A stretch of DNA of 60,048 bases from Candidatus Omnitrophota bacterium (GCA_043742785.1 JAYTXU010000019.1:1-60048); one strand, 5' to 3'. Positions 9,167 through 45,063 are shown, numbered from the stretch's first letter. Notes: generated from the letters alone by a model not told the origin. A program made the numbers and translations.

Positions 9167-11622
9167 CTTTTGATCCCTCCATTAGAATTAATCCAATCTA
9201 AACGTTCCTGAGCAAATTTAGATTCTTCCATATTGAGCTGAATTATTTTTTGATAAGTCACACGAGCACCCGACAGATCTTTACGATCTTCAAAAATCCT
9301 AGCTACACGAAGATAAGCTTTTATAGCCCAAGATTTTTGATTTGAATATTGATCAGGAATTTTTAAATACCCCTCAATAGCATCATCCAAACGCCCCATG
9401 ACCTCATAAGTATCGGCGATATCAAACAACAATTCCGCATTAGTAATTTGCCCTTTAGCCTGCTCTACATTTAATGCTTTCTGATAGGCGTCAAGCTCTT
9501 TATCAAAACCCTGATTATTGCGATAAAGTTGAGCAATCTTCAAATAAGCTTCGCGAGCTAATTGCGGCGATGAAGTAGCAATAGTTTCATACGCTTCTGC
9601 AGCTTTAGGCGCATCGAATTCTTTAGCAAAAATTCCAGCAATAGCCAATTTAACTTTAGAATACAAGAACTGATCCTTATGAGAAATTTGCTTATATTGA
9701 GCTAAGGCTTGATCATACATGCCCTGAATTTCATACGATTGTCCTAACTCATAATGAATTTGATCAATTCCACCATGCTCTCCAAAACGATCTAAGATCT
9801 GCTGATAAAAATCTACTGCCTGAGTATAATCCGAACTTCTTAAATAGTACTGAGCTAACCACAATAGCCCCTCAAACTCTACTTCCGTTTTAGGATATTT
9901 ATAAACAATTAATTTAAATCTCTTCACCGCTTCTTTAATCTGTCCTAATTCAAATTGACATTTTGCAATACCAATATCTGAATTCTTAGCAACTGCTTGA
10001 TCATCAGGATAAAGACGGAGAACCTTCTGAAATATTTTTAAAGCTTCATCAGACTGTTTTAAGTTTAAATAAGATAAAGCTAAAATATAATTAGCTTCAG
10101 GCAAGAAATTATTAGAATGCAAAGAGTTATTTAAAAAACTCTTAATTCTTACGGAAGCCTTTTTCCAATCATTGGTTTTAAATGAAGCTAATCCTAAATA
10201 ATAATCCACATCCTCTAAATAACGACTTTGAGGAAAGTTCTTCTTAAGACTTTCAAAAAGGACAACTGCAGATTGAATCTTTCCCGTTTTCAATAAAGCA
10301 ACCGCCTGTCGATGTTCAACATAATCCGTCATACTACTGTCTGGATAATTCTTAATAACATTATCATAAATAATTCCCGCATCATCCATTTGACCTGCAT
10401 CTGCCAGAGCATCTGCCATCTGCACCATTGCATTAACTTTTATTTCTGCCTTACTCGAACGATCAATAATGCCTTGAAATTGTGTTTGCGCATCACTAAG
10501 TCTATTTAATTTCGCATAAGTCCAAGCTAGACCTAAATTAGCTTTTAAAGCTAAATCTTCATTTCCCCCTCGATCAATAACAAAACGATAATCTCCTAAA
10601 GCATCATTAAAACTCTTCAACATAAGATTAACATTGGCTCGTCCCAAATGAGCTTCAAGGTAATGCTGACTTAAAGGAAACTCTTTAATTAAATCATTAT
10701 AAACATTTACCGCTACCTGCAAGTCTCCCTTTTCAAGAGAAACATTAGCTTTAACTAAAAGTAAATCATCTTCAGGTAGATTTTTAAATTTACTAAATTC
10801 CCGCGCCTCTTTTAATACCTTTTCAACTTCATCAAAATTCTTTAATTTTAAAGAACACCAAATTTTCCCAATATAAGCAGTTAAAATCATTTTAGGATCT
10901 GAAGACTTAAAAACCTTATCATAATAAAGTTTAGAATTTTCATAATCTTCCATGTAATAATAAGTGTCAGCGATATTTAAATAAACTTCCAATTGACTCG
11001 CTGATTGCGGATAAGCAACCAAATACCCCATAAAACCCTTCAATGCTTTACGGTAGTCACCCAAATCGTAATAACATTGTGCACTCTTAACTGAAGCATC
11101 TTCACTAAGCTGATATTTAGGAAACCTTGTCACCAACCGCTGAAAAATATCTTTAGCTTGAGAATATTTCTTCTGATCAAAAAAGGACCATCCTAAAGAA
11201 TAATAAGCTTGGGGGAGATAGGCGGAATCTGGATAATTTTGAATCAATTCTTGATAATGTTTTTGCGCCTGATCATAATCAGACATTTTTAAAGAGACTT
11301 CACCCAGCCAATACAATAACAACTCTTTATTATTGTAACTATCCCTTAAATTATTAAAAATGTCCAAAGCATCCTGCAAACGATTCTTAAAAAAATAACA
11401 TTGTGCTAAAAGAAACCTTGCTTGAGGAATCTTTGGATTAGTTGCAGACTCGGATAGAAACTCTTCTAAATAACGAATAGCTACATCATAAAACCCATCA
11501 TCAAATGCCCGCAAGGCTGTTGAATAGAGCTCTTGCTGATGACTTTGAGCATAAGAAAGATGCAAATCAAATGAAACGTTAAAAATAAATAAACAAAGTA
11601 AAACTAATACTAATCTTTTCAT
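9163..11622 (-). CDS. Large exported TPR-repeat protein (CpoB/BamD-like repeats)
   Basis: Signal peptide followed by continuous TPR-like repeats with recurrent 'YP.S' turns. Confidence 0.85.
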   Translation of the reverse strand: MKRLVLVLLCLFIFNVSFDLHLSYAQSHQQELYSTALRAFDDGFYDVAIRYLEEFLSESATNPKIPQARFLLAQCYFFKNRLQDALDIFNNLRDSYNNKELLLYWLGEVSLKMSDYDQAQKHYQELIQNYPDSAYLPQAYYSLGWSFFDQKKYSQAKDIFQRLVTRFPKYQLSEDASVKSAQCYYDLGDYRKALKGFMGYLVAYPQSASQLEVYLNIADTYYYMEDYENSKLYYDKVFKSSDPKMILTAYIGKIWCSLKLKNFDEVEKVLKEAREFSKFKNLPEDDLLLVKANVSLEKGDLQVAVNVYNDLIKEFPLSQHYLEAHLGRANVNLMLKSFNDALGDYRFVIDRGGNEDLALKANLGLAWTYAKLNRLSDAQTQFQGIIDRSSKAEIKVNAMVQMADALADAGQMDDAGIIYDNVIKNYPDSSMTDYVEHRQAVALLKTGKIQSAVVLFESLKKNFPQSRYLEDVDYYLGLASFKTNDWKKASVRIKSFLNNSLHSNNFLPEANYILALSYLNLKQSDEALKIFQKVLRLYPDDQAVAKNSDIGIAKCQFELGQIKEAVKRFKLIVYKYPKTEVEFEGLLWLAQYYLRSSDYTQAVDFYQQILDRFGEHGGIDQIHYELGQSYEIQGMYDQALAQYKQISHKDQFLYSKVKLAIAGIFAKEFDAPKAAEAYETIATSSPQLAREAYLKIAQLYRNNQGFDKELDAYQKALNVEQAKGQITNAELLFDIADTYEVMGRLDDAIEGYLKIPDQYSNQKSWAIKAYLRVARIFEDRKDLSGARVTYQKIIQLNMEESKFAQERLDWINSNGGIKR

Positions 11623-36727: not shown

Positions 36728-36767
36728 ATTATACTTAATTTGCATAAAAAGTAAATTTAGATATAAT
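36728..36767. promoter_or_regulatory. Overlapping divergent promoters, probably leaderless
   Basis: Plus: TTGCAT-N16-TATAAT, 9 nt before the dusB ATG. Minus: TTTACT-N16-TATAAT, 7 nt before ATG 36720. Neither gene has an SD. Confidence 0.55.
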
Positions 36768-36776
36768 GGGGCACTT

Positions 36777-37760
36777 ATGAAGATAGGCAATATTGAACTC
36801 AATCAGCCTTTGTCTCTTGCCCCCATGGAAGACGTTACCGAACTTCCCTTCCGCTTGATTTGCAAGCGTTTAGGCGCGGATTTGGTGTACACAGAATTTA
36901 CGGCTTCTGAAGCGCTCATTCGTGAAGTCCCCAAAGCTTTACACAAAATTGAAATTTGTGATGAAGAAAGACCCGTCGCTATTCAAATCTTTGGTGGACG
37001 GCCAGAAGCCATGGAAGGTGCTGCTCAAATTATCGAGCGATTCAAACCAGATTTTATTGATATCAATTGCGGCTGTTGGGTTAAAAATCATGTGGCTCGC
37101 AATGAAGGCGCCGGTCTTTTGCGCGATCTTCCCTTATTTGAAAAAATTGTTAAATCCACCGTCAAAGCAACTAAACTTCCTGTCACTGTGAAAACCCGTC
37201 TAGGCTGGGACAGTCAAAGTATCGTTATCCTGGATGTTGCAAAAATGGTAGAACAAGCAGGAGCTCAGGCGCTGACCTTGCATTGCCGCACCCGAGATCA
37301 AGCCCATAATGGTTTTGCGGACTGGGCATGGCTTGAAAAAATTAAGAAAGTGATCTCTATTCCTGTCTTTGGTAATGGGGACGTTACCACCCCTGAAGAT
37401 GTAAAAGCCATGCTAGAAACCGGCTGTGATGGGGTAATGATCGGCCGCGGTGCTATTGCCAATCCCTGGATTTTTAAACAAACCAAATATTATTTAAAAA
37501 CAGGAGAACATCTGCCTGAGCCCGGCATCGAAGAAAGAATTCAAATCTGTTTAGAGCACTTAAAATTAAATGTACAATTCAAGGACGAGAAATACGGCGT
37601 ACAGACCTTTCGTAAACATTACACAGGATATTTAAAAGGCCTCCCTAATGTTGGGGCCGTCCGCAGCGATTTAATGCAATACACAGAATTAAACCAAGTG
37701 ATTCAACGTTTAGCTCAATATATGGAAAGCACTCAATATGACTCCCTTAAAAAAATTTGA
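36777..37760 (+). CDS. dusB: tRNA-dihydrouridine synthase B
   Basis: 'LAPMEDVT..PFR', 'IDINCGC', 'PVTVKTRLGWD', 'GNGDV', 'GVMIGRGA..NPW.F', 'RKH'. Confidence 0.93.
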   Translation: MKIGNIELNQPLSLAPMEDVTELPFRLICKRLGADLVYTEFTASEALIREVPKALHKIEICDEERPVAIQIFGGRPEAMEGAAQIIERFKPDFIDINCGCWVKNHVARNEGAGLLRDLPLFEKIVKSTVKATKLPVTVKTRLGWDSQSIVILDVAKMVEQAGAQALTLHCRTRDQAHNGFADWAWLEKIKKVISIPVFGNGDVTTPEDVKAMLETGCDGVMIGRGAIANPWIFKQTKYYLKTGEHLPEPGIEERIQICLEHLKLNVQFKDEKYGVQTFRKHYTGYLKGLPNVGAVRSDLMQYTELNQVIQRLAQYMESTQYDSLKKI

Positions 37761-39138
37761 TATTATTACGATCGGCTCTGGCGGCGGCTCCAAGATCTCC
37801 TCACCTGCAGCATCCTTAGGGTTTAAGGTTGCTGTCATTGAAAAGGATCGATTAGGCGGGACCTGTTTAAACCGTGGATGCATTCCTTCAAAAATGCTTA
37901 TTCATCCTGCTGATGTAGCTTTGCATATTAAGGAAGCCCACCGCTTTGATATTCATAACAATCCTCAATTTACCGTCAACTTTGCCAAACTTATCAATCG
38001 CATCTCAGCAACTGTCGATAGTGATTCAGATAAAATTGCTGCCAGCTACAGCAAACATCCTAATATCACCTCTATCAAAGGTGAAGCTAAGTTTGTTAAT
38101 AATAAAACCATCGAAGCTAATGGCGAGCAATTAACCGCCGATAAAATTTTTATTGCTGTAGGCGCGAAGCCTCAAATACCAAATATTCCGGGCTTAGCTG
38201 GAACACCCTTTATGACCTCCACCGAAGCTTTACGCAATACATCCTTGCCTGAATCAATGATAATCCTAGGTGGCGGATATATCGCCTGCGAATTAGGACA
38301 TGCCTATGGTGCTTTAGGAACCCAAACACATTTTCTTGTGCGCTCTTCCCTTTTGCGTCATGAAGATTCAGAAGTCGCTGCTGAATTTCAAAAAGTCTTT
38401 AGTCAATATCATGATATGAAGTTTAGAGCAATACCAACTAAGGTGGAATACTCTAACAATCAATTTACCGTACACTTTACACAAAACGGACAAACCCAAT
38501 CCATCCGTGCTCAAAGCTTATTGATTGCCACCGGCATCACATCTAATACCGACACCTTAGATATCATCAACACTGATATAGAACTTAAATCCGGCGGATT
38601 AATTAAGGTTAATGAATTCTTAGAAACTTCTGTTGATGGAATCTACGCCATGGGTGACTGTGTTGGCAATTACTTCTTCCGCCATAGTGTGAATTTTGAA
38701 GGCGAATATCTCTTCGATCAGCTCTTTGGTGAGAAAATTCGAAAACCCATTGCCTATCCTCCCGTTCCTCATGCAGTCTTTACAAATCCTCAGGTCGCTG
38801 GAGTGGGTAAAACTGAAGATGAGTTAAAACAAGAAGGTGTCGATTACTTTGTTGGATTTAATCCTTATAAAAGCTCTGCTATGGGTATGGCACTTTTATC
38901 AGAGTCTGGATTTTGTAAGCTGCTCTTTGATCGTAAATCCCGCAAACTCTTAGGTGGTCATATTGTGGGAGAAGAGGCCTCTAATATGATTCATATGGTT
39001 ATTGCCTACATGAATATGAATGCCACCTTAGATGATCTGTTGCGCACGATTTATATTCACCCTGCATTGCCAGAAATTGTACGCAATGCTGCTAGAAAAG
39101 CAAAAACAGCTTTAGATAAAAATACAACCAGAGTATAA
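37738..39138 (+). CDS. Pyridine nucleotide-disulfide reductase (DLDH/mycothione reductase-like)
   Basis: 'GGTCLNRGCIPSK' redox disulfide, 'GGGYIACE', 'GDCVG', 'P.AVFT.PQ.A', 'HPALPE'. Confidence 0.85.
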   Translation: MTPLKKFDIITIGSGGGSKISSPAASLGFKVAVIEKDRLGGTCLNRGCIPSKMLIHPADVALHIKEAHRFDIHNNPQFTVNFAKLINRISATVDSDSDKIAASYSKHPNITSIKGEAKFVNNKTIEANGEQLTADKIFIAVGAKPQIPNIPGLAGTPFMTSTEALRNTSLPESMIILGGGYIACELGHAYGALGTQTHFLVRSSLLRHEDSEVAAEFQKVFSQYHDMKFRAIPTKVEYSNNQFTVHFTQNGQTQSIRAQSLLIATGITSNTDTLDIINTDIELKSGGLIKVNEFLETSVDGIYAMGDCVGNYFFRHSVNFEGEYLFDQLFGEKIRKPIAYPPVPHAVFTNPQVAGVGKTEDELKQEGVDYFVGFNPYKSSAMGMALLSESGFCKLLFDRKSRKLLGGHIVGEEASNMIHMVIAYMNMNATLDDLLRTIYIHPALPEIVRNAARKAKTALDKNTTRV

Positions 39139-39146
39139 TATCTGCC

Positions 39147-39875
39147 ATGCGTCATTCGGACACAGCCATATCTATTAGAAATCTAACAAAATTCTATAAA
39201 AACTTTCAAGCTTTAGACAAAGTCTCTTTTGAAGTCAAACGCGGGGATTTCTTTGCCTTCCTAGGCCCCAATGGCGCTGGCAAAACAACCACCATCAATT
39301 GCCTAACCGGACTTTCCAATTATCAAAGCGGTGATGTTAAAGTTTTTGGCTACGATGTCACAGCTGAGTATCTCAATTCCCGTCGTCTCATTGGTCTATG
39401 CGCTCAGGAATTTAATTTTGATCCTTTTTTAACCATCTATCAACTTTTAGTCTATCAAGCGGAATATTTTGGTATCCCCCCTGTTGAATCTAAAAAGCGT
39501 GCTAATCAATTGTTAGAACGTTTTGGACTAACAGATAAACGCAACTGTAAACACCGAGCGCTCTCAGGTGGGATGAAAAAACGCCTGCTTCTATGCCGCG
39601 CTTTGATTCACGATCCTGAAATTCTTATTCTTGATGAACCAACTGCCGGCTGTGACTTAGAATTAAAATTTTTAATCTGGGATTATCTAGCTCAACTGAA
39701 TCGTGAAGGTAAAACTATTTTCTTAACCACCCATTACATGGAAGAAGCAGAAAAGCTTTGTAAAACAATTGGCATCATCAATCACGGCCGTATTGTGCGT
39801 ATTGGTGATAAGAAACAAATCCTCCAGGATAAAAGCCTTGAAGAAATCTTTCTTGAGATAACAGGAGCTGAATAA
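39147..39875 (+). CDS. ABC-2 type ATP-binding protein (YadG-like)
   Basis: GPNGAGKTT, LSGGMKKR, 'LDEPTAG', 'TTHYMEEAE'. Confidence 0.9.
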   Translation: MRHSDTAISIRNLTKFYKNFQALDKVSFEVKRGDFFAFLGPNGAGKTTTINCLTGLSNYQSGDVKVFGYDVTAEYLNSRRLIGLCAQEFNFDPFLTIYQLLVYQAEYFGIPPVESKKRANQLLERFGLTDKRNCKHRALSGGMKKRLLLCRALIHDPEILILDEPTAGCDLELKFLIWDYLAQLNREGKTIFLTTHYMEEAEKLCKTIGIINHGRIVRIGDKKQILQDKSLEEIFLEITGAE

Positions 39876-39876
39876 T

Positions 39877-40656
39877 ATGCTTCATTTAATCACCAACCCT
39901 ATCGGTGTCTGGGCATTATCCAAAAGAGAAATTCATCGTTTTGTATCGGTGGCTAATCAAACTATTTTTCCACCGCTAGTTTCCTCTGCTCTTTTTATGT
40001 ATATCTTTGGCGTAGCTATTGGCTCTAAAATTAATTTCTCTTCAACCGGCCTTTCCTATTTACAATTTATTGTTCCTGGGCTCATGACCATGCATTTAAT
40101 ATCCAGCTCTTATGAAAACACATCTTCATCGCTCTTCATCGGACGCTGGCATAATCACATTCAAGAAATTCTACTTTCACCATTATCTTATATGGAAATG
40201 GTTTTAGGACTTTTAGCAGGCGGAGTTGCTCGCGGAATGATCGTTTGCTTAGGCGTTTGGATCACGTCTCTTCTCTTTGCCCCAAGTCTTATTGCTCATC
40301 CATTGGCTCTACTTTATTTTATGGCAACTATCTCGGTGATTTTTTCCTGCGCTGGAATGATGGGGGCTTTATGGGCGGAAGATTTTGGAATGCTGTCTAT
40401 GTGGAATATCTATATCATTGTCCCTATGGCTTTGCTGGGTGGAGTCTTTCATCCCTTATCCATGTTGCCAACTCCCTTACAAATCATTTCCCACTTTAAT
40501 CCTATGTATTATTTGATTTGCGGTATTCGATGGAGCATGACGGGCAGCAGCGACACTTCTCTTCCCATCTGTGTCGGCGTAGCCTTCTTTCTGGCCAGCT
40601 TATTCTTTATTGCCACAGTCTACTTATTTAAAATTGGTTATAAACTACGCAGTTAA
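39877..40656 (+). CDS. ABC-2 type permease (YadH-like)
   Basis: 'QTIFPPLVS', 'YLQFIVPGL', 'LGGVFH', 'FNPMYY'; about 6 TM. Confidence 0.88.
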   Translation: MLHLITNPIGVWALSKREIHRFVSVANQTIFPPLVSSALFMYIFGVAIGSKINFSSTGLSYLQFIVPGLMTMHLISSSYENTSSSLFIGRWHNHIQEILLSPLSYMEMVLGLLAGGVARGMIVCLGVWITSLLFAPSLIAHPLALLYFMATISVIFSCAGMMGALWAEDFGMLSMWNIYIIVPMALLGGVFHPLSMLPTPLQIISHFNPMYYLICGIRWSMTGSSDTSLPICVGVAFFLASLFFIATVYLFKIGYKLRS

Positions 40657-40705
40657 TAAATAGTGACAGGCACTAATTATTTAATTAGTGCCTGTCACTA
40701 TTTAT
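40656..40705. terminator. Perfect 24-bp inverted repeat between convergent genes (bidirectional terminator / REP-like)
   Basis: ATAAATAGTGACAGGCACTAATTA-TT-TAATTAGTGCCTGTCACTATTTAT; contains the bolA stop codon. Confidence 0.75.
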
Positions 40706-40958
40706 CTCTAGCTTGAATCGCCAAGGCATGGACTCTTTCTTTAAGCGGTTCTTCAAGAGCAGCATAAATCATGCGATGACGCTCTAAGAGGGCTTTACCT
40801 ACAAAAGCTTTAGAAACAATCGAAACACTAAAATGAGTTCCACCATTCTTAGCATCAGGATTATGACCGGCATGCTTAGCAGAGTCATCAATCACCTCTA
40901 AAAACTCGGGCTGGAATGTTGCTTGTAGGATTTTTTCAATCTTTGCTTTCATCATCAT
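40698..40958 (-). CDS. bolA: BolA family protein
   Basis: 'DDSAKHAGH', 'GTHF...IVS..F.GK..LERHR.IY', 'VHALAI'. Confidence 0.93.
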   Translation of the reverse strand: MMMKAKIEKILQATFQPEFLEVIDDSAKHAGHNPDAKNGGTHFSVSIVSKAFVGKALLERHRMIYAALEEPLKERVHALAIQARDK

Positions 40959-40981
40959 TTAATATTATACTATAGCCCGCT

Positions 40982-42271
40982 ATGAACAAACTTACTTTAT
41001 CTAATAATTTCTCACAAACCATCTGTGTAGCCTGTATTCAAAAAGAACAGAAAAATGTCCACCTGTGGCTTAAAACTTATGAGGAAAACTATACCCCCAT
41101 TTACAGCTCGGTAGATATTCGTGATGCAGGCTTTAAAATTGCCGTCGTTGATACAAACCTTTTCCCTGCCGGCTTTAATAATTTATGCGAACACGGGTTT
41201 AAAGATGCTATCAATCTCTTTAAAAATGCCATCAACAAAAGAGTTCCTGGTGCCAAAAAAATTCTTATTACCGCTGAAGAACACACACGTAATACCTGGT
41301 ATCTAGAAAATATCCGTATCCTGCAAGAAATTATTCAAAAAGCAGGATTCGAAGCAACCATCGCTACTTTTTTTACTAAAGAACCTTCCTTTTGTGAACA
41401 AGCGGCCAGCGCTCTTGAATTAGAAACCGCTGCAGGTAAAACCGTTAAAATTCATTGTTTCAAAAAAATCACAGAGAAAATCCAAAATAACGAAGCCCGT
41501 TTTGATTTAATGCTCATGAATAACGATTTAATGGGAGGCATTCCTCAGGCCTTAATCGACGCTGGGATCCCTATGTTCCCCTCCATTCATGCCGGATGGC
41601 ACTCTCGTTTGAAATCAGAGCATTTTCGTCATACCAATGAACTCATGAAAGAATTTGCCCAGATGGTTGGCGTTGATCCCTGGCTATTTTCCTGTCTTTA
41701 TCGAAGCGTTGATGAAATAGACATAAATAAAGAAGACGATCGACAAAGACTTTACACCCATGCCAAAGATCTATTTAACGAAATTCAAGCCAAATATACT
41801 CAATACAGTATCGAAGACAAACCTTTTATTTTTATCAAAGCTAACAGCGGCACCTATGGCTTAGGCGTTATCCCCCTTGAGAACCCTGAACAAATCTTGG
41901 AATTAAACAGCCGTAAACGCAAAGATCTCTCAAGGGACAAAGCTGCCCAAGAAGTCACCAGCTTCTTACTTCAAGAAGGAGTTCCAACCATTCACCGTAT
42001 TGAAGAAAATCCTTCAGAAGTTTGTATTTATCAAATTGATAATAATTTTGTGGGTGGATTTTATCGATTCCATACTGGAAAAAGTTCTAGGGAAAACCTC
42101 AACTCCCCTGGCGGCATGACCTTCCAAAAGATGTGTCCTCATTTGGACAAATACGGCAAGGACTGCGGCGTTGAACACAATTTAAACGTTTTTGATATTT
42201 ACCGCATTCTAGCGCGCGTTGCTGGCGTTGCTGCAACCCGCGAAATCAAAGACCTGGAGAAAAAGAAATGA
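40982..42271 (+). CDS. gshA: Glutamate-cysteine ligase, divergent ATP-grasp type (PF08886-like)
   Basis: 'PIYSSVDIRDAGFK..VDTNLFPAGFNNL', 'E.HTRN..YLEN', 'GWHSRLKS.HF', 'KANSGTYG.G', 'LQEGV', 'GGFYR.H', 'ENLNSPG'; adjacent to gshB. Confidence 0.85.
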   Translation: MNKLTLSNNFSQTICVACIQKEQKNVHLWLKTYEENYTPIYSSVDIRDAGFKIAVVDTNLFPAGFNNLCEHGFKDAINLFKNAINKRVPGAKKILITAEEHTRNTWYLENIRILQEIIQKAGFEATIATFFTKEPSFCEQAASALELETAAGKTVKIHCFKKITEKIQNNEARFDLMLMNNDLMGGIPQALIDAGIPMFPSIHAGWHSRLKSEHFRHTNELMKEFAQMVGVDPWLFSCLYRSVDEIDINKEDDRQRLYTHAKDLFNEIQAKYTQYSIEDKPFIFIKANSGTYGLGVIPLENPEQILELNSRKRKDLSRDKAAQEVTSFLLQEGVPTIHRIEENPSEVCIYQIDNNFVGGFYRFHTGKSSRENLNSPGGMTFQKMCPHLDKYGKDCGVEHNLNVFDIYRILARVAGVAATREIKDLEKKK

Positions 42272-43203
42272 AATTCTTGTTTTTAATGGACCATCTTGAA
42301 ACAATTAAGATGGAAAAAGACACCACCTTCATTTTTATGCTGGAATCTTTTAAACGAGGACACGAAATCTATTACGTCCCTAAAGACGGCCTTAGCTTAA
42401 TTGATGGAAAAATCTTTTTTAATGCCACCAAGGTTTCCCCTCAATCTATTATTCATGAACCATTTCTAATTGGACAACGAACACAGCTTTCACAAAAAGA
42501 CGTCCATGCTATTTTTGTCCGTCCTGACCCTCCTTTTGATGCACAATATTTAATGAATACCTGGATTCTAGATCATCTGCCTAAAAAGATTGCTGTGATT
42601 AATAGTCCGTCTGGAATTCGCACCGTTAATGAAAAAGTTTGGGCTGCCCAATTTACAGATATCACTCCTGCCACCATCATTTCCAGTAATCAGCAAGATT
42701 TGTCAGATTTTATTGCTAAACATAAAAATGTGATCGCCAAACCAACGAATGCCTTTGGGGGGCAGTCCGTCTTTCATATTGAAAATGGACACACCAATAC
42801 CAATGTCATCCTAGAAACATTAAGCCAAGGATACGATCAGGCGATCATTCTACAGAAATATATTCCAGATGCTAAAAATGGTGATAAAAGGATACTGCTG
42901 CTTAATGGAGAAATTTTAGGAGCCGTGCTTCGCGTGCATGGAAAGGGCGAACATCGTAATAATTTTTATGCCGGCGGAAAAGCCATGGCTGTAACTGTTA
43001 ATAAACGCGACAAAGAGATTGTCAACATTCTTAAACCCCACTTACAGAAACTCGGGCTTTATTTTGTTGGTATTGATATTTTGGGCGACTACTTGATAGA
43101 GGTGAATGTGACCTCCCCTACCTGTCTGCAGGAAATGAATAAGCTTTACAAGAAATCATTAGAAGAAAAAGTCATTGATTTTGTAGAAAAATTGGTAAAA
43201 TAA
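42268..43203 (+). CDS. gshB: Glutathione synthetase
   Basis: 'DTT', 'R.DPPFD..Y', 'NEK', 'GDKRILL.NG', 'RNNF..GG', 'FVGIDILG..L.EVNVTSPT'. Confidence 0.96.
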   Translation: MKFLFLMDHLETIKMEKDTTFIFMLESFKRGHEIYYVPKDGLSLIDGKIFFNATKVSPQSIIHEPFLIGQRTQLSQKDVHAIFVRPDPPFDAQYLMNTWILDHLPKKIAVINSPSGIRTVNEKVWAAQFTDITPATIISSNQQDLSDFIAKHKNVIAKPTNAFGGQSVFHIENGHTNTNVILETLSQGYDQAIILQKYIPDAKNGDKRILLLNGEILGAVLRVHGKGEHRNNFYAGGKAMAVTVNKRDKEIVNILKPHLQKLGLYFVGIDILGDYLIEVNVTSPTCLQEMNKLYKKSLEEKVIDFVEKLVK

Positions 43204-43210
43204 CTCCTCT

Positions 43211-43450
43211 ATGAACACTCCTACACTTTATCACTTTGCCGGATGTCCTTATTGTCAACGCGTGCGAGATTATCTTGCCAAAGAAAATATCAGCATTCCT
43301 TTGAAAGATACTCACCAAAATCCAGCTTACAAAGAAGAGCTTTTCAAGATTGGCGGAAAAACTCAAGTTCCCTGCCTTGTGATCGACGGCAAACCTCTTT
43401 ATGAATCCTTAAACATTATTGAATGGTTTAAGAAGAACTACAAGAAATGA
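43211..43450 (+). CDS. Dithiol glutaredoxin / GST-N-like protein
   Basis: CPYC active site, 'GGKTQVPCL.IDG..LYES'. Confidence 0.85.
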   Translation: MNTPTLYHFAGCPYCQRVRDYLAKENISIPLKDTHQNPAYKEELFKIGGKTQVPCLVIDGKPLYESLNIIEWFKKNYKK

Positions 43451-43704
43451 CATTAAACGAAATTAAAAAACTCATCGAAGAAAAGGTTCCCAACTCAACA
43501 GCCTATGTGTTGGATCCTATGAATGATGAGCAGCATCTGCAGGCTTTTGTAGTCTCTTCTTCGTTTGAAGGCTTGCCTGTTTTCAAACAACAACAACTAG
43601 TAATGTCTGCACTTAAAGATATTTTTTCTGTCGTGCACGCATTAGGTTTAAAAACATTTACACCCACGAAATGGGATGAAAACAAATCACAATACGGATA
43701 TTAA
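43447..43704 (+). CDS. BolA/IbaG family protein
   Basis: 'HLQAFVVSSSFEGL', 'VHALGLKTFTP'; directly upstream of the monothiol Grx. Confidence 0.85.
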   Translation: MTLNEIKKLIEEKVPNSTAYVLDPMNDEQHLQAFVVSSSFEGLPVFKQQQLVMSALKDIFSVVHALGLKTFTPTKWDENKSQYGY

Positions 43705-43717
43705 TAGGAGGAAATAC

Positions 43718-44029
43718 ATGTTATCAGAAAACTTAAAACAACAAATTGAAGGTGATATCAAGAATAACAAAGTTGTTATTTATATGAAGGGTACTGCCGA
43801 TGCTCCTATGTGTGGTTTTTCTGCTAAATCCGTACAAATTTTACAATCCTATCAAGTACCCATCAAAGACCACAATGTACTAGCCTCTGAAGAACTTCGC
43901 CAAGGTATTAAAGAATTCACCAATTGGCCAACTGTTCCACAAATTTTTATCAACGGTGAGTTTGTTGGAGGATGCGACATCATTACAGAAATGCATGAAA
44001 ACGGTGAATTAGCCCAAATGCTCAAGTAG
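43718..44029 (+). CDS. grxD: Monothiol glutaredoxin (Grx4 family)
   Basis: 'MKGT...PMCGFS', 'WPTVPQIFINGEFVGGCDI'; start ATG 43718 with AGGAGG SD. Confidence 0.95.
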   Translation: MLSENLKQQIEGDIKNNKVVIYMKGTADAPMCGFSAKSVQILQSYQVPIKDHNVLASEELRQGIKEFTNWPTVPQIFINGEFVGGCDIITEMHENGELAQMLK

Positions 44030-45028
44030 GCTATAGGGATAAATTCCTGAAGCATGCCCATCATTCCAATTAATTCCAACGGCATAATTACCTAACAACG
44101 TAATTTCTTTAGGGGCAATATCAAGACGGATTTTAGCAGGATTAAGAATCTTCTTTCCTGTTATTTCATTAATACATACCGCACATTGGCACGATAAACG
44201 CACCTGACGGTTTTCCAATACTATCTCTCTACCATTATTAAATTTCAAACAAATACTCTGCGCATCAAAAGTAACTTGAGGAAGAATCCTTTGATCCTTA
44301 TTTTGTTCTTCAAGCTCTTTTAGCAAAGCCTGCGCCGTTTGTTGCATATAAATAGCCAAATCAAGATTAGAGACTAATGGAATCTCAGACAAAGTCTTAA
44401 CGCCAAAACGTTTCTCTAGAGTTTGATTATCTCCAAAAACATAATGTTTCTTATCGCAAGAATCACAAATAAAAAAAGCCATATTTTCTACAATACCTAA
44501 AATAGGAACCTTCACCTTCTCAAACATCAAAATCCCTCTTGATACATCAACTAAAGATAGAGTCTGACGAGTTGTTACAATCACAGCCCCTGTCAAACGT
44601 ACCGACTGAGTAATTGTTAATTGCACATCCCCTGTACCTGGAGGCATATCAATAATTAAATAATCAAGATCTGCCCATTCTGTCTTAAACAAGAGTTGCT
44701 GAATATAATTAGCAAGAATGGGTCCTCGCATCACCGCTGGCGCATCACCCAACAAGAATCCAAAAGACATAAGCTTTAAACCTTCAGCTTCTACAGGAAT
44801 GGCCATCTTAAATTCATTAATATGGATATCAACAGAAGATAAATTAAAAAGTGTAGGAATCGAGGGGCCGTGGATATCCGCATCCAGAAGACCAACCTTA
44901 AAGCCCTTTTGCAGTAATGCTCGGGCTAAACCTGCAGCAATAGTGGATTTGCCGACACCTCCCTTACAGGAAGAAACAGCAATAATGTTTTTAACTTTAG
45001 ATAAACCAAAAGGATTTGGAGAACTCAT
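44009..45028 (-). CDS. mrp: Mrp/ApbC/NBP35 Fe-S carrier ATPase fused to a C-terminal DUF971-like domain (HCF101-like)
   Basis: 'IIAVSSCKGGVGKST', 'DADIHGPS', 'DMPPGTGD', CxxC 'CDSC'; C-terminal 'CQCAVC..E.TG', 'GNYAV.I.W.DGH..GIY'. Confidence 0.88.
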   Translation of the reverse strand: MSSPNPFGLSKVKNIIAVSSCKGGVGKSTIAAGLARALLQKGFKVGLLDADIHGPSIPTLFNLSSVDIHINEFKMAIPVEAEGLKLMSFGFLLGDAPAVMRGPILANYIQQLLFKTEWADLDYLIIDMPPGTGDVQLTITQSVRLTGAVIVTTRQTLSLVDVSRGILMFEKVKVPILGIVENMAFFICDSCDKKHYVFGDNQTLEKRFGVKTLSEIPLVSNLDLAIYMQQTAQALLKELEEQNKDQRILPQVTFDAQSICLKFNNGREIVLENRQVRLSCQCAVCINEITGKKILNPAKIRLDIAPKEITLLGNYAVGINWNDGHASGIYPYSLLEHLG

Positions 45029-45035
45029 AGGACGC

Positions 45036-45063
45036 ATCCTACCAGAGGACTAATCATTGTCAA
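45036..45063 (-). promoter_or_regulatory. mrp promoter (probably leaderless)
   Basis: TTGACA-N16-TAGGAT, 7 nt before ATG 45028; no SD. Confidence 0.55.

Follow-up and report, generated by a model that had tools for sequence, protein, structure and literature searches.

What does a compact run of thiol and iron-sulfur (Fe-S) genes supply to a bacterium of the phylum Omnitrophota, and how is such a run inherited? The genes lie on contig C19 of a Candidatus Omnitrophota metagenome-assembled genome (MAG) of 1.9 Mb and 82% completeness (GCA_043742785.1, JAYTXU010000019.1:1-60048). This whole stretch of 60,048 nucleotides is referred to here as the window. Ten open reading frames (ORFs) at 37738-45037 encode a flavoprotein disulfide reductase, an ABC-2 transporter pair, two BolA proteins, the two enzymes of glutathione (GSH) synthesis, two glutaredoxins, and an Mrp-type Fe-S carrier. 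All ten match the families named in the original prediction, which described a self-contained, transferable module for GSH-dependent Fe-S delivery and oxygen tolerance. The closest relatives of the window genome are all Candidatus Omnitrophota, which are uncultured and mostly ultra-small bacteria.

The locus is likely a neighbourhood of one Omnitrophota order that supplies GSH and GSH-dependent Fe-S trafficking to the oxygen-respiring members. The co-localisation of the ten genes is far beyond chance; at least 33 distinct loci at species level have the same gene order. Within the order, the genomes with the full gene set all have the haem-copper oxidase gene COX1 (9/9), while those with a reduced set have neither COX1 (0/11) nor cytochrome bd (0/11). 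The genes and their upstream neighbour dus are as follows, with scores in bits and family models judged against their curated cut-offs.

36777..37760, plus strand: dus, tRNA-dihydrouridine synthase (PF01207, 289 bits)
37738..39138, plus strand: flavoprotein disulfide reductase, labelled DSR (PF07992 and PF02852)
39147..39875, plus strand: ABC transporter ATPase, YadG-like (PF00005)
39877..40656, plus strand: ABC-2 permease, YadH-like (PF01061)
40698..40958, minus strand: BolA1, BolA-type (PF01722, 98.7 bits)
40982..42271, plus strand: GshA, glutamate-cysteine ligase of the ATP-grasp (A. ferrooxidans) type (PF08886/TIGR02049)
42268..43203, plus strand: GshB, glutathione synthetase (TIGR01380)
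43211..43450, plus strand: small dithiol glutaredoxin (Grx) of 79 aa with a CPYC site (PF00462 and GST_N_3)
43447..43704, plus strand: BolA2, IbaG-type (PF01722, 45.4 bits)
43676..44029, plus strand: Grx4, monothiol CGFS glutaredoxin (TIGR00365)
44009..45037, minus strand: Mrp/ApbC-type P-loop Fe-S carrier with a C-terminal DUF971 (PF10609 and PF06155)

Gene order and inheritance

The window proteins were compared by tblastn with 62 loci recovered via GshA and 80 loci recovered via alignment of the ABC-2 permease, and the latter are all from Omnitrophota. The upstream part of the recurring order consists of mtaB, htpX, DUF423, and a trpD-like gene, all on the minus strand, followed by dus, the reductase, and the two ABC genes. 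The downstream part comprises bolA1 (minus strand), gshA, gshB, grx, bolA2, grx4, and mrp (minus strand). It is maintained down to a GshA identity of about 53%. The prediction of a coherent and conserved neighbourhood for making and using GSH, co-located in other genomes, is borne out by these loci. The flanking genes mtaB, htpX, DUF423, and dus are syntenic across dozens of species, and the closest relatives also have metH. The dus gene is the first of the co-directional genes and shares 23 nt with the start of the reductase gene. Nearly every relative, with or without GSH genes, has it in the syntenic position; it is a backbone gene outside the thiol function.

Fifty non-redundant loci with both sides covered were typed. 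The full set is present in 33/50, and a reduced type with only dus-ABC-ABC2-gshA-gshB-grx in 11/50. Neither block occurs in 4/50, and in the remaining 2/50 a block is apparently missing and has been relocated to another site or contig. The reductase and the BolA/Grx4 genes are present or absent together (31:10 loci, with one real mismatch), even though they lie on opposite sides of the ABC pair.

The GC content of the cluster is 0.37-0.42, flat, and the same as in the surroundings, and no tRNA, integrase, transposase, or repeat boundary was found at the cluster. Because the flanks are conserved, the GC content is flat, and no tRNA is present, the cluster is read as a vertically inherited chromosomal neighbourhood with gains and losses, and not as a mobile kit. 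The contrary view, in which the module is a horizontally transferable oxygen-tolerance kit that moves as a unit and owes its patchiness to repeated acquisition, is very unlikely. It draws on the rarity of the PF08886-type GshA in the phylum and on genome G076. This genome belongs to another class and carries gshA-gshB-grx-bolA2-grx4-bolA1-ABC-ABC2. The GSH genes of G076 are 54% similar to those of the window, against 52% for same-order genomes, while its backbone is far less similar than that of same-order genomes (Dus 36% versus 63%, Mrp 37% versus 56%). The GshA tree also places G076, together with a Gemmatimonadales-labelled contig, inside the radiation of the order, but the nodes for G076 and locus L051 are weakly supported (82-87 by the SH-like approximate likelihood ratio test). 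In the same class, family f14 has a different gshA/gshB pair beside the same ABC neighbour. Against movement as a unit stand the syntenic flanks and the missing mobility genes, and the module is split at two positions flanking the ABC pair, so that no single cassette suffices. The sequence similarities of G076 give at most a hint of one inter-class transfer, and "transferable" is not a term that the cluster as a whole supports.

The gshB start overlaps the gshA stop (ATGA), and mrp is convergent with grx4 with an overlap of 21 nt. The minus-strand bolA1 lies between the ABC-2 permease gene and gshA (40656-40982), and the divergent start codons of bolA1 and gshA are only 23 bp apart. This places a gshA promoter inside bolA1, or else transcription from the ABC genes continues into gshA, antisense to bolA1. 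A promoter/terminator scan gave 31 sites where 24.5 +/- 5.1 are expected, which is not above chance; its best promoter-like plus-strand site, at 36739-36767, lies upstream of dus. A close relative (L006:4000-9663) has a minus-strand ORF of 1887 aa with no assigned function, which splits the cluster between the ABC-2 permease gene and bolA1.

Two layers and the oxygen link

The locus types and the distribution of terminal oxidases separate two layers. The first consists of gshA-gshB-grx beside the YadGH-like pair, and is also found in relatives without a terminal oxidase. The second comprises the reductase, BolA1, BolA2, and Grx4, and occurs only in COX1-positive genomes of the order. The COX1 counts of 9/9 and 0/11 indicate that the second layer accompanies aerobic respiration, and that the gshAB-grx layer does not need it. 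Whole genomes were searched with a chimeric query of reductase, Grx4, BolA2, BolA1, and Mrp (E<=1e-6). By this search the reductase ortholog, Grx4, and BolA are all absent from the 11 reduced-type genomes, and the only Mrp in these genomes is a short paralog that lacks DUF971. Five genomes of the order that lack the module have no oxidase.

The link with oxygen extends to the phylum. An evenly drawn sample of 201 Omnitrophota genomes, the same set in every distribution search, contains COX1 in 67 genomes, cytochrome bd in 20, a GshB-like gene in 69, and Grx4 above its cut-off in 54. A terminal oxidase of any kind is present in 64 of the 69 gshB-positive genomes and in 11 of the 132 others, which leaves 5 genomes with GshB only and 121 with neither. 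GshB and Grx4 occur together in 52 genomes, GshB alone in 17, Grx4 alone in 2, and neither in 130. At the family level, gshB is found in 12 of 44 families, all 12 of which also have the permease and an oxidase, and 29 families have none of the four traits. The oxygen link proposed in the original prediction is supported by these counts and by the restriction of the reductase/BolA/Grx4 layer to COX1-positive genomes. BolA proteins are reported to be associated with aerobic organisms, and the window genes are likewise.

Orthologs of Mrp with DUF971 are present in all 11 COX1-positive genomes of the order (G000, G091, G129, G139, G183, and G218-G223) and in none of the 17 others (G206-G217, G079, G141, G151, G167, and G169). 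Two genomes without any GSH genes retain it, and both are COX1-positive. Mrp-DUF971 is part of the backbone and follows COX1 independently. This link recalls the mitochondrial homolog Ind1/NUBPL, which acts in respiratory complex assembly.

A working scheme follows from the gene content. GSH would be made by the ATP-grasp-type GshA and by GshB, and the CPYC glutaredoxin would use it for disulfide and deglutathionylation chemistry. Grx4 would carry a GSH-ligated [2Fe-2S] cluster with BolA1 and the IbaG-type BolA2 as partners. Mrp-DUF971 may hand clusters built by the SUF system, which is encoded elsewhere, to client proteins. An NADPH flavoprotein resembling mycothione reductase (Mtr) would most likely keep the thiol pool reduced, as a glutathione reductase (GR) in place of Gor. 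Both layers would sit on a dus-ABC-ABC2-(mrp) backbone, and the second would be gained or lost along with aerobic respiration.

Several observations weigh against a neighbourhood that serves oxygen-respiring members in this way. All genomes are MAGs, the window's own at 82% completeness, so that absences must be taken as provisional. For the short BolA proteins the search used the chimeric query at the threshold given above, and divergent copies could be missed. The co-occurrence counts are uncorrected for phylogeny; about 12 of 44 families have the traits, and these probably amount to only three or four independent origins. The cluster genes lie on both strands, and hence do not form one operon. 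Gene identities, synteny, co-distribution, and the GshA fold are shown, whereas the enzyme activities and the substrates of the reductase and the pump are predicted from sequence. The reductase falls below every curated GR cut-off (NF004776 300 against 480, TIGR01424 251 against 606, TIGR01421 244 against 556), and narrowly passes NF004944, a dihydrolipoyl dehydrogenase model (626.1 against 619). No ortholog of the reductase is present anywhere in the genomes of 11 relatives that do carry gshAB-grx, and in other classes most GSH-positive Omnitrophota show a single class-I reductase. In this phylum, then, GSH need not be accompanied by a dedicated GR.

Predicted proteins for GSH synthesis, Fe-S trafficking and thiol reduction

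GshA matches TIGR02049 over residues 19-425 with 357.9 bits (cut-off 293.9) and PF08886 with 402.7 bits. Its AlphaFold (AF2) model has a predicted local distance difference test (pLDDT) value of 85.7. The best Foldseek match of the model is PDB 3k1t, a putative gamma-glutamylcysteine synthetase of Methylobacillus flagellatus (E 3.7e-36, template-modelling score 0.82, 32% identity), with which it has the fold in common. The next matches are glutathionylspermidine and glutathione synthetases and D-Ala-D-Ala ligases, all of the ATP-grasp type. The modelled GshA has an ATP-grasp fold, as the original prediction held. The A. ferrooxidans-type ligase is from Proteobacteria, whereas the window GshA is from Omnitrophota. 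GshB passes TIGR01380 (336.2 bits against 299.05) and NF003573 (339 against 272), and contains both the N-terminal PF02951 and the ATP-grasp PF02955 domain.

The PF08886-type GshA is found in only 6/201 genomes. Other GSH-positive Omnitrophota lineages mostly have an unrelated GCS2-type GshA adjoining gshB. GSH has been listed among the common biosynthetic pathways of Omnitrophota (Seymour et al. 2023, PMC10066038). Given this report and the gshB-like gene in 69/201 genomes, GSH synthesis is neither rare nor new in the phylum, and the suggestion that it would be unexpected in a PVC-group host does not apply.

In 38 fetched loci, a gene for an SDF symporter (PF00375, sodium:dicarboxylate) lies directly upstream of gshA, after bolA1, as in L011:8659-9993, L018:7897-9147, L028:8697-9935, and L051:7206-9804. 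It could be a supply line for glutamate or cystine. No ortholog was found in the window genome, which has only a 26% paralog on contig C42. Between the symporter gene and gshA, relative L018 also encodes (9220-9975) a CREG/PNPOx-like protein with DUF2470, which resembles a haem-utilisation or haem-oxygenase-like protein. A further PF08886 GshA is found in L057, from a 1.2-Mb MAG labelled "Alteromonas sp." (G201), and is sister to that of the UBP8 MAG L058 (G202). The label of G201 is almost certainly wrong.

The CPYC glutaredoxin follows gshB in all relatives, including the reduced type. Grx4 scores 141.1 bits against a TIGR00365 cut-off of 117.1 and has the active site PMCGFSAKS; an alternative start is possible at 43718. 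BolA1 is 48% identical to E. coli BolA, has the same insertion, and contains the histidines of the RHR and HAL motifs. BolA2 aligns with E. coli IbaG: it lacks the BolA insertion, has KQQQ where BolA has RHR, and ends in a TFTPxxW tail. The window BolA2 differs from its relatives in having glutamine at a position where they carry histidine. The combination of a CGFS glutaredoxin with BolA-type and IbaG-type partners is also that of the E. coli Grx4 (GrxD)-BolA/IbaG, eukaryotic Grx3/4-Fra2, and GLRX5-BOLA1/3 systems. These systems are GSH-dependent, with GSH as the cluster ligand, and the genes of the window suggest the same dependence. The E. coli genes are scattered: bolA lies at 454 kb, and ibaG follows mlaFEDCB. 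In contrast, those of the window are clustered with gshA-gshB, the reductase, and Mrp.

Mrp contains the P-loop domain PF10609 (278.9 bits), DUF971 (PF06155, 67 bits), and the motifs CDSC and CQCAVC. It scores below the equivalog cut-offs for ApbC (245.9 against 348) and MrpORP (248.7 against 450). In common with plastid HCF101 and Mrp-ApbC, it has a NUBPL-type P-loop whose Walker A motif is deviant (CKGGVGKS), as well as a CxxC motif and DUF971 at the C-terminus. However, HCF101 has an N-terminal DUF59, which is absent from the window Mrp; the protein begins 13 residues ahead of the P-loop domain. The term HCF101-like is apt for the P-loop and C-terminal domains only. The more distant same-order relatives L028 (13107-14420) and L102 (8829-10151) have Mrp with DUF59, P-loop, and DUF971, and DUF59 has been lost from the window Mrp and the copies of its closest relatives. 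The L028 Mrp has also lost the cysteines of CxxC and of the DUF971 CxCxxC.

The window genome has sufB, sufC, sufD, sufS, and sufU in an operon on contig C24 (C24:32877-38286) and an A-type Fe-S carrier on contig C38 (C38:4758-5114). The window genes represent the trafficking and delivery end of the Fe-S pathway, not the assembly machinery. With sufBCDSU, the A-type carrier, and the dihydrolipoyl dehydrogenase (Lpd) of pyruvate dehydrogenase (PDH) all on other contigs, the cluster is not self-contained.

The reductase is a class-I pyridine-nucleotide disulfide reductase with the redox motif CLNRGC and a C-terminal HPALPE. Its nucleotide-site motif, LVRSSLLRH, is of the NADPH type, where the PDH Lpd of the same genome has an NADH-type VVEM. 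The CxxxxC motif, the His-Glu pair, and the NADPH-type site are found throughout the class and do not single out GR. Among solved structures, actinobacterial Mtr (PDB 8qcj, 256 bits) is the closest, and it has in common the ...RS..LLRH.D segment of the NADPH site and the C-terminal HPAL.E. The Mtr models NF005884 (379.7 against 501) and TIGR03452 (340 against 635.65) are not reached. The host background also differs from that of Mtr, as the window host has genes for GSH and not for mycothiol, a pathway that is not expected outside Actinobacteria. This suggests that the substrate is probably glutathione disulfide (GSSG).

A homologue search with the reductase gave only relatives of at least 69% identity. 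In the phylum sample, orthologs (65-74% identity) are restricted to the window's order, where precisely the five PF08886-positive genomes carry them. The other 196/201 lack them and have no closer match than a paralog with about 30% identity. Every genome with the reductase also has GSH genes; in two apparent exceptions the GSH/Grx4 block has been relocated. The window genome has a complete aceE-aceF-lpd operon (C21:4780-10562), the Lpd of which is only 31% identical to the reductase; no further class-I disulfide reductase was found besides these two. A role as the E3 component of PDH was rejected because of this separate lpd inside the aceEF operon. Public pipelines name the enzyme dihydrolipoyl dehydrogenase or mycothione reductase, and both names are probably wrong.

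From these features, an NADPH-dependent GR that replaces Gor is the somewhat favoured assignment. Confidence in it is held down because the enzyme is absent from the gshAB-positive reduced-type genomes and because other classes mostly have one such enzyme. The alternative, which is rather unlikely, is that the enzyme is no GR and serves the Grx4/BolA/aerobic layer otherwise, for instance on another low-molecular-weight disulfide or persulfide, or that it is a second dihydrolipoyl-type dehydrogenase. The scores on NF004944 and on the GR models point in that direction, as do the nearest solved relative, which reduces mycothione and not GSSG, and the fact that the reductase follows BolA/Grx4 and COX1 and not gshAB. 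The presence of a genuine Lpd in the PDH operon, an NADPH-type motif that is atypical for E3 enzymes, the constant company of GSH genes, and the expected absence of mycothiol argue against it. The recycling of GSH claimed in the original prediction goes further than an enzyme that fails all GR models and is missing from relatives with gshAB permits.

The YadGH-like pair and the meaning of the locus

The ATPase shares 48% identity with E. coli YadG over 234 aa and lacks the C-terminal ~65 aa of YadG. The permease is 36% identical to E. coli YadH over its full length; its best model is NF011648 (YadH), at 201.2 bits and below the cut-off of 225. The two-gene organisation is the same as in E. coli, and transporters of this family are widespread in Gram-negative bacteria. 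The neighbours differ: yadGH of E. coli adjoins can, hpt, and yadI, and is not near bolA or ibaG in that genome, whereas the window pair adjoins GSH genes. The statement in the original prediction that YadGH-like genes often neighbour bolA/ibaG thus does not hold for E. coli. E. coli YadGH is reported to confer modest tolerance to macrolides, with no native substrate established (PMC13462070).

Orthologs of the permease (at least 45% identity) are present in 59/201 genomes. They are found in 54 of the 69 gshB-positive genomes and in 5 of the 132 gshB-negative ones, which leaves 15 genomes with GshB only and 127 with neither. All 12 gshB-positive families have the ABC pair, and only one gshB-negative family has it. 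The pair adjoins GSH genes in three configurations, namely in the window's order, in G076, and in family f14 of the same class. In f14 the gshA is of the non-homologous GCS2 type, gshB is 34-37% identical, and no dus is nearby. On the Gemmatimonadales-labelled contig, the ABC pair and gshA are separated by ~5 kb that contain thyA, folA, and two SDF symporters; this is a weak case and was not used.

The proposed tie between the YadGH-like pair and the GSH genes is upheld by adjacency and by co-occurrence with gshB, and the interpretation of this tie is less firm. The neighbourhood may reflect synteny by descent, in which the ABC-2 pair (or dus, or mrp) is not coupled to the thiol genes and the pump is a general YadGH-type efflux system. 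This is given slightly less than an even chance. In relatives that lack GSH genes (G169, G167, and several further loci) the pair stays beside dus; in other classes it is solitary, and in E. coli it is the macrolide-tolerance system away from bolA and ibaG described above. Descent does not readily account for adjacency to GSH genes in three configurations, including one with an unrelated gshA and no dus nearby, or for the co-occurrence with gshB at both genome and family level. The pair lies beside two unrelated gshA types and co-occurs with gshB; export related to GSH is a reasonable lead, but no more than that. The full proposal is improbable, namely that the pair exports GSH, GSSG, a GSH conjugate, or a GSH-ligated Fe-S or metal complex to the periplasm, and that the Mtr-like flavoprotein is an unrecognised GR lineage replacing Gor. 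If true, it would provide the first physiological substrate for YadGH-family transporters. For the substrate of YadGH-type pumps, the tie to GSH genes yields a testable hypothesis.

Every component of the neighbourhood belongs to a known family. Two leads are modestly new: a candidate GR of the Mtr-like type, and a YadGH-like pump linked to GSH genes. The close relatives with no module, with gshAB-grx only, or with the full module form a natural comparison series, which matches the absence or presence of a haem-copper oxidase. In this single order, the Grx4/BolA arm of Fe-S trafficking, which depends on GSH, looks like an adaptation to oxygen respiration, and GSH synthesis is not confined to aerobes. 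The genome series is useful for the question of how GSH-dependent Fe-S trafficking goes with aerobic respiration.

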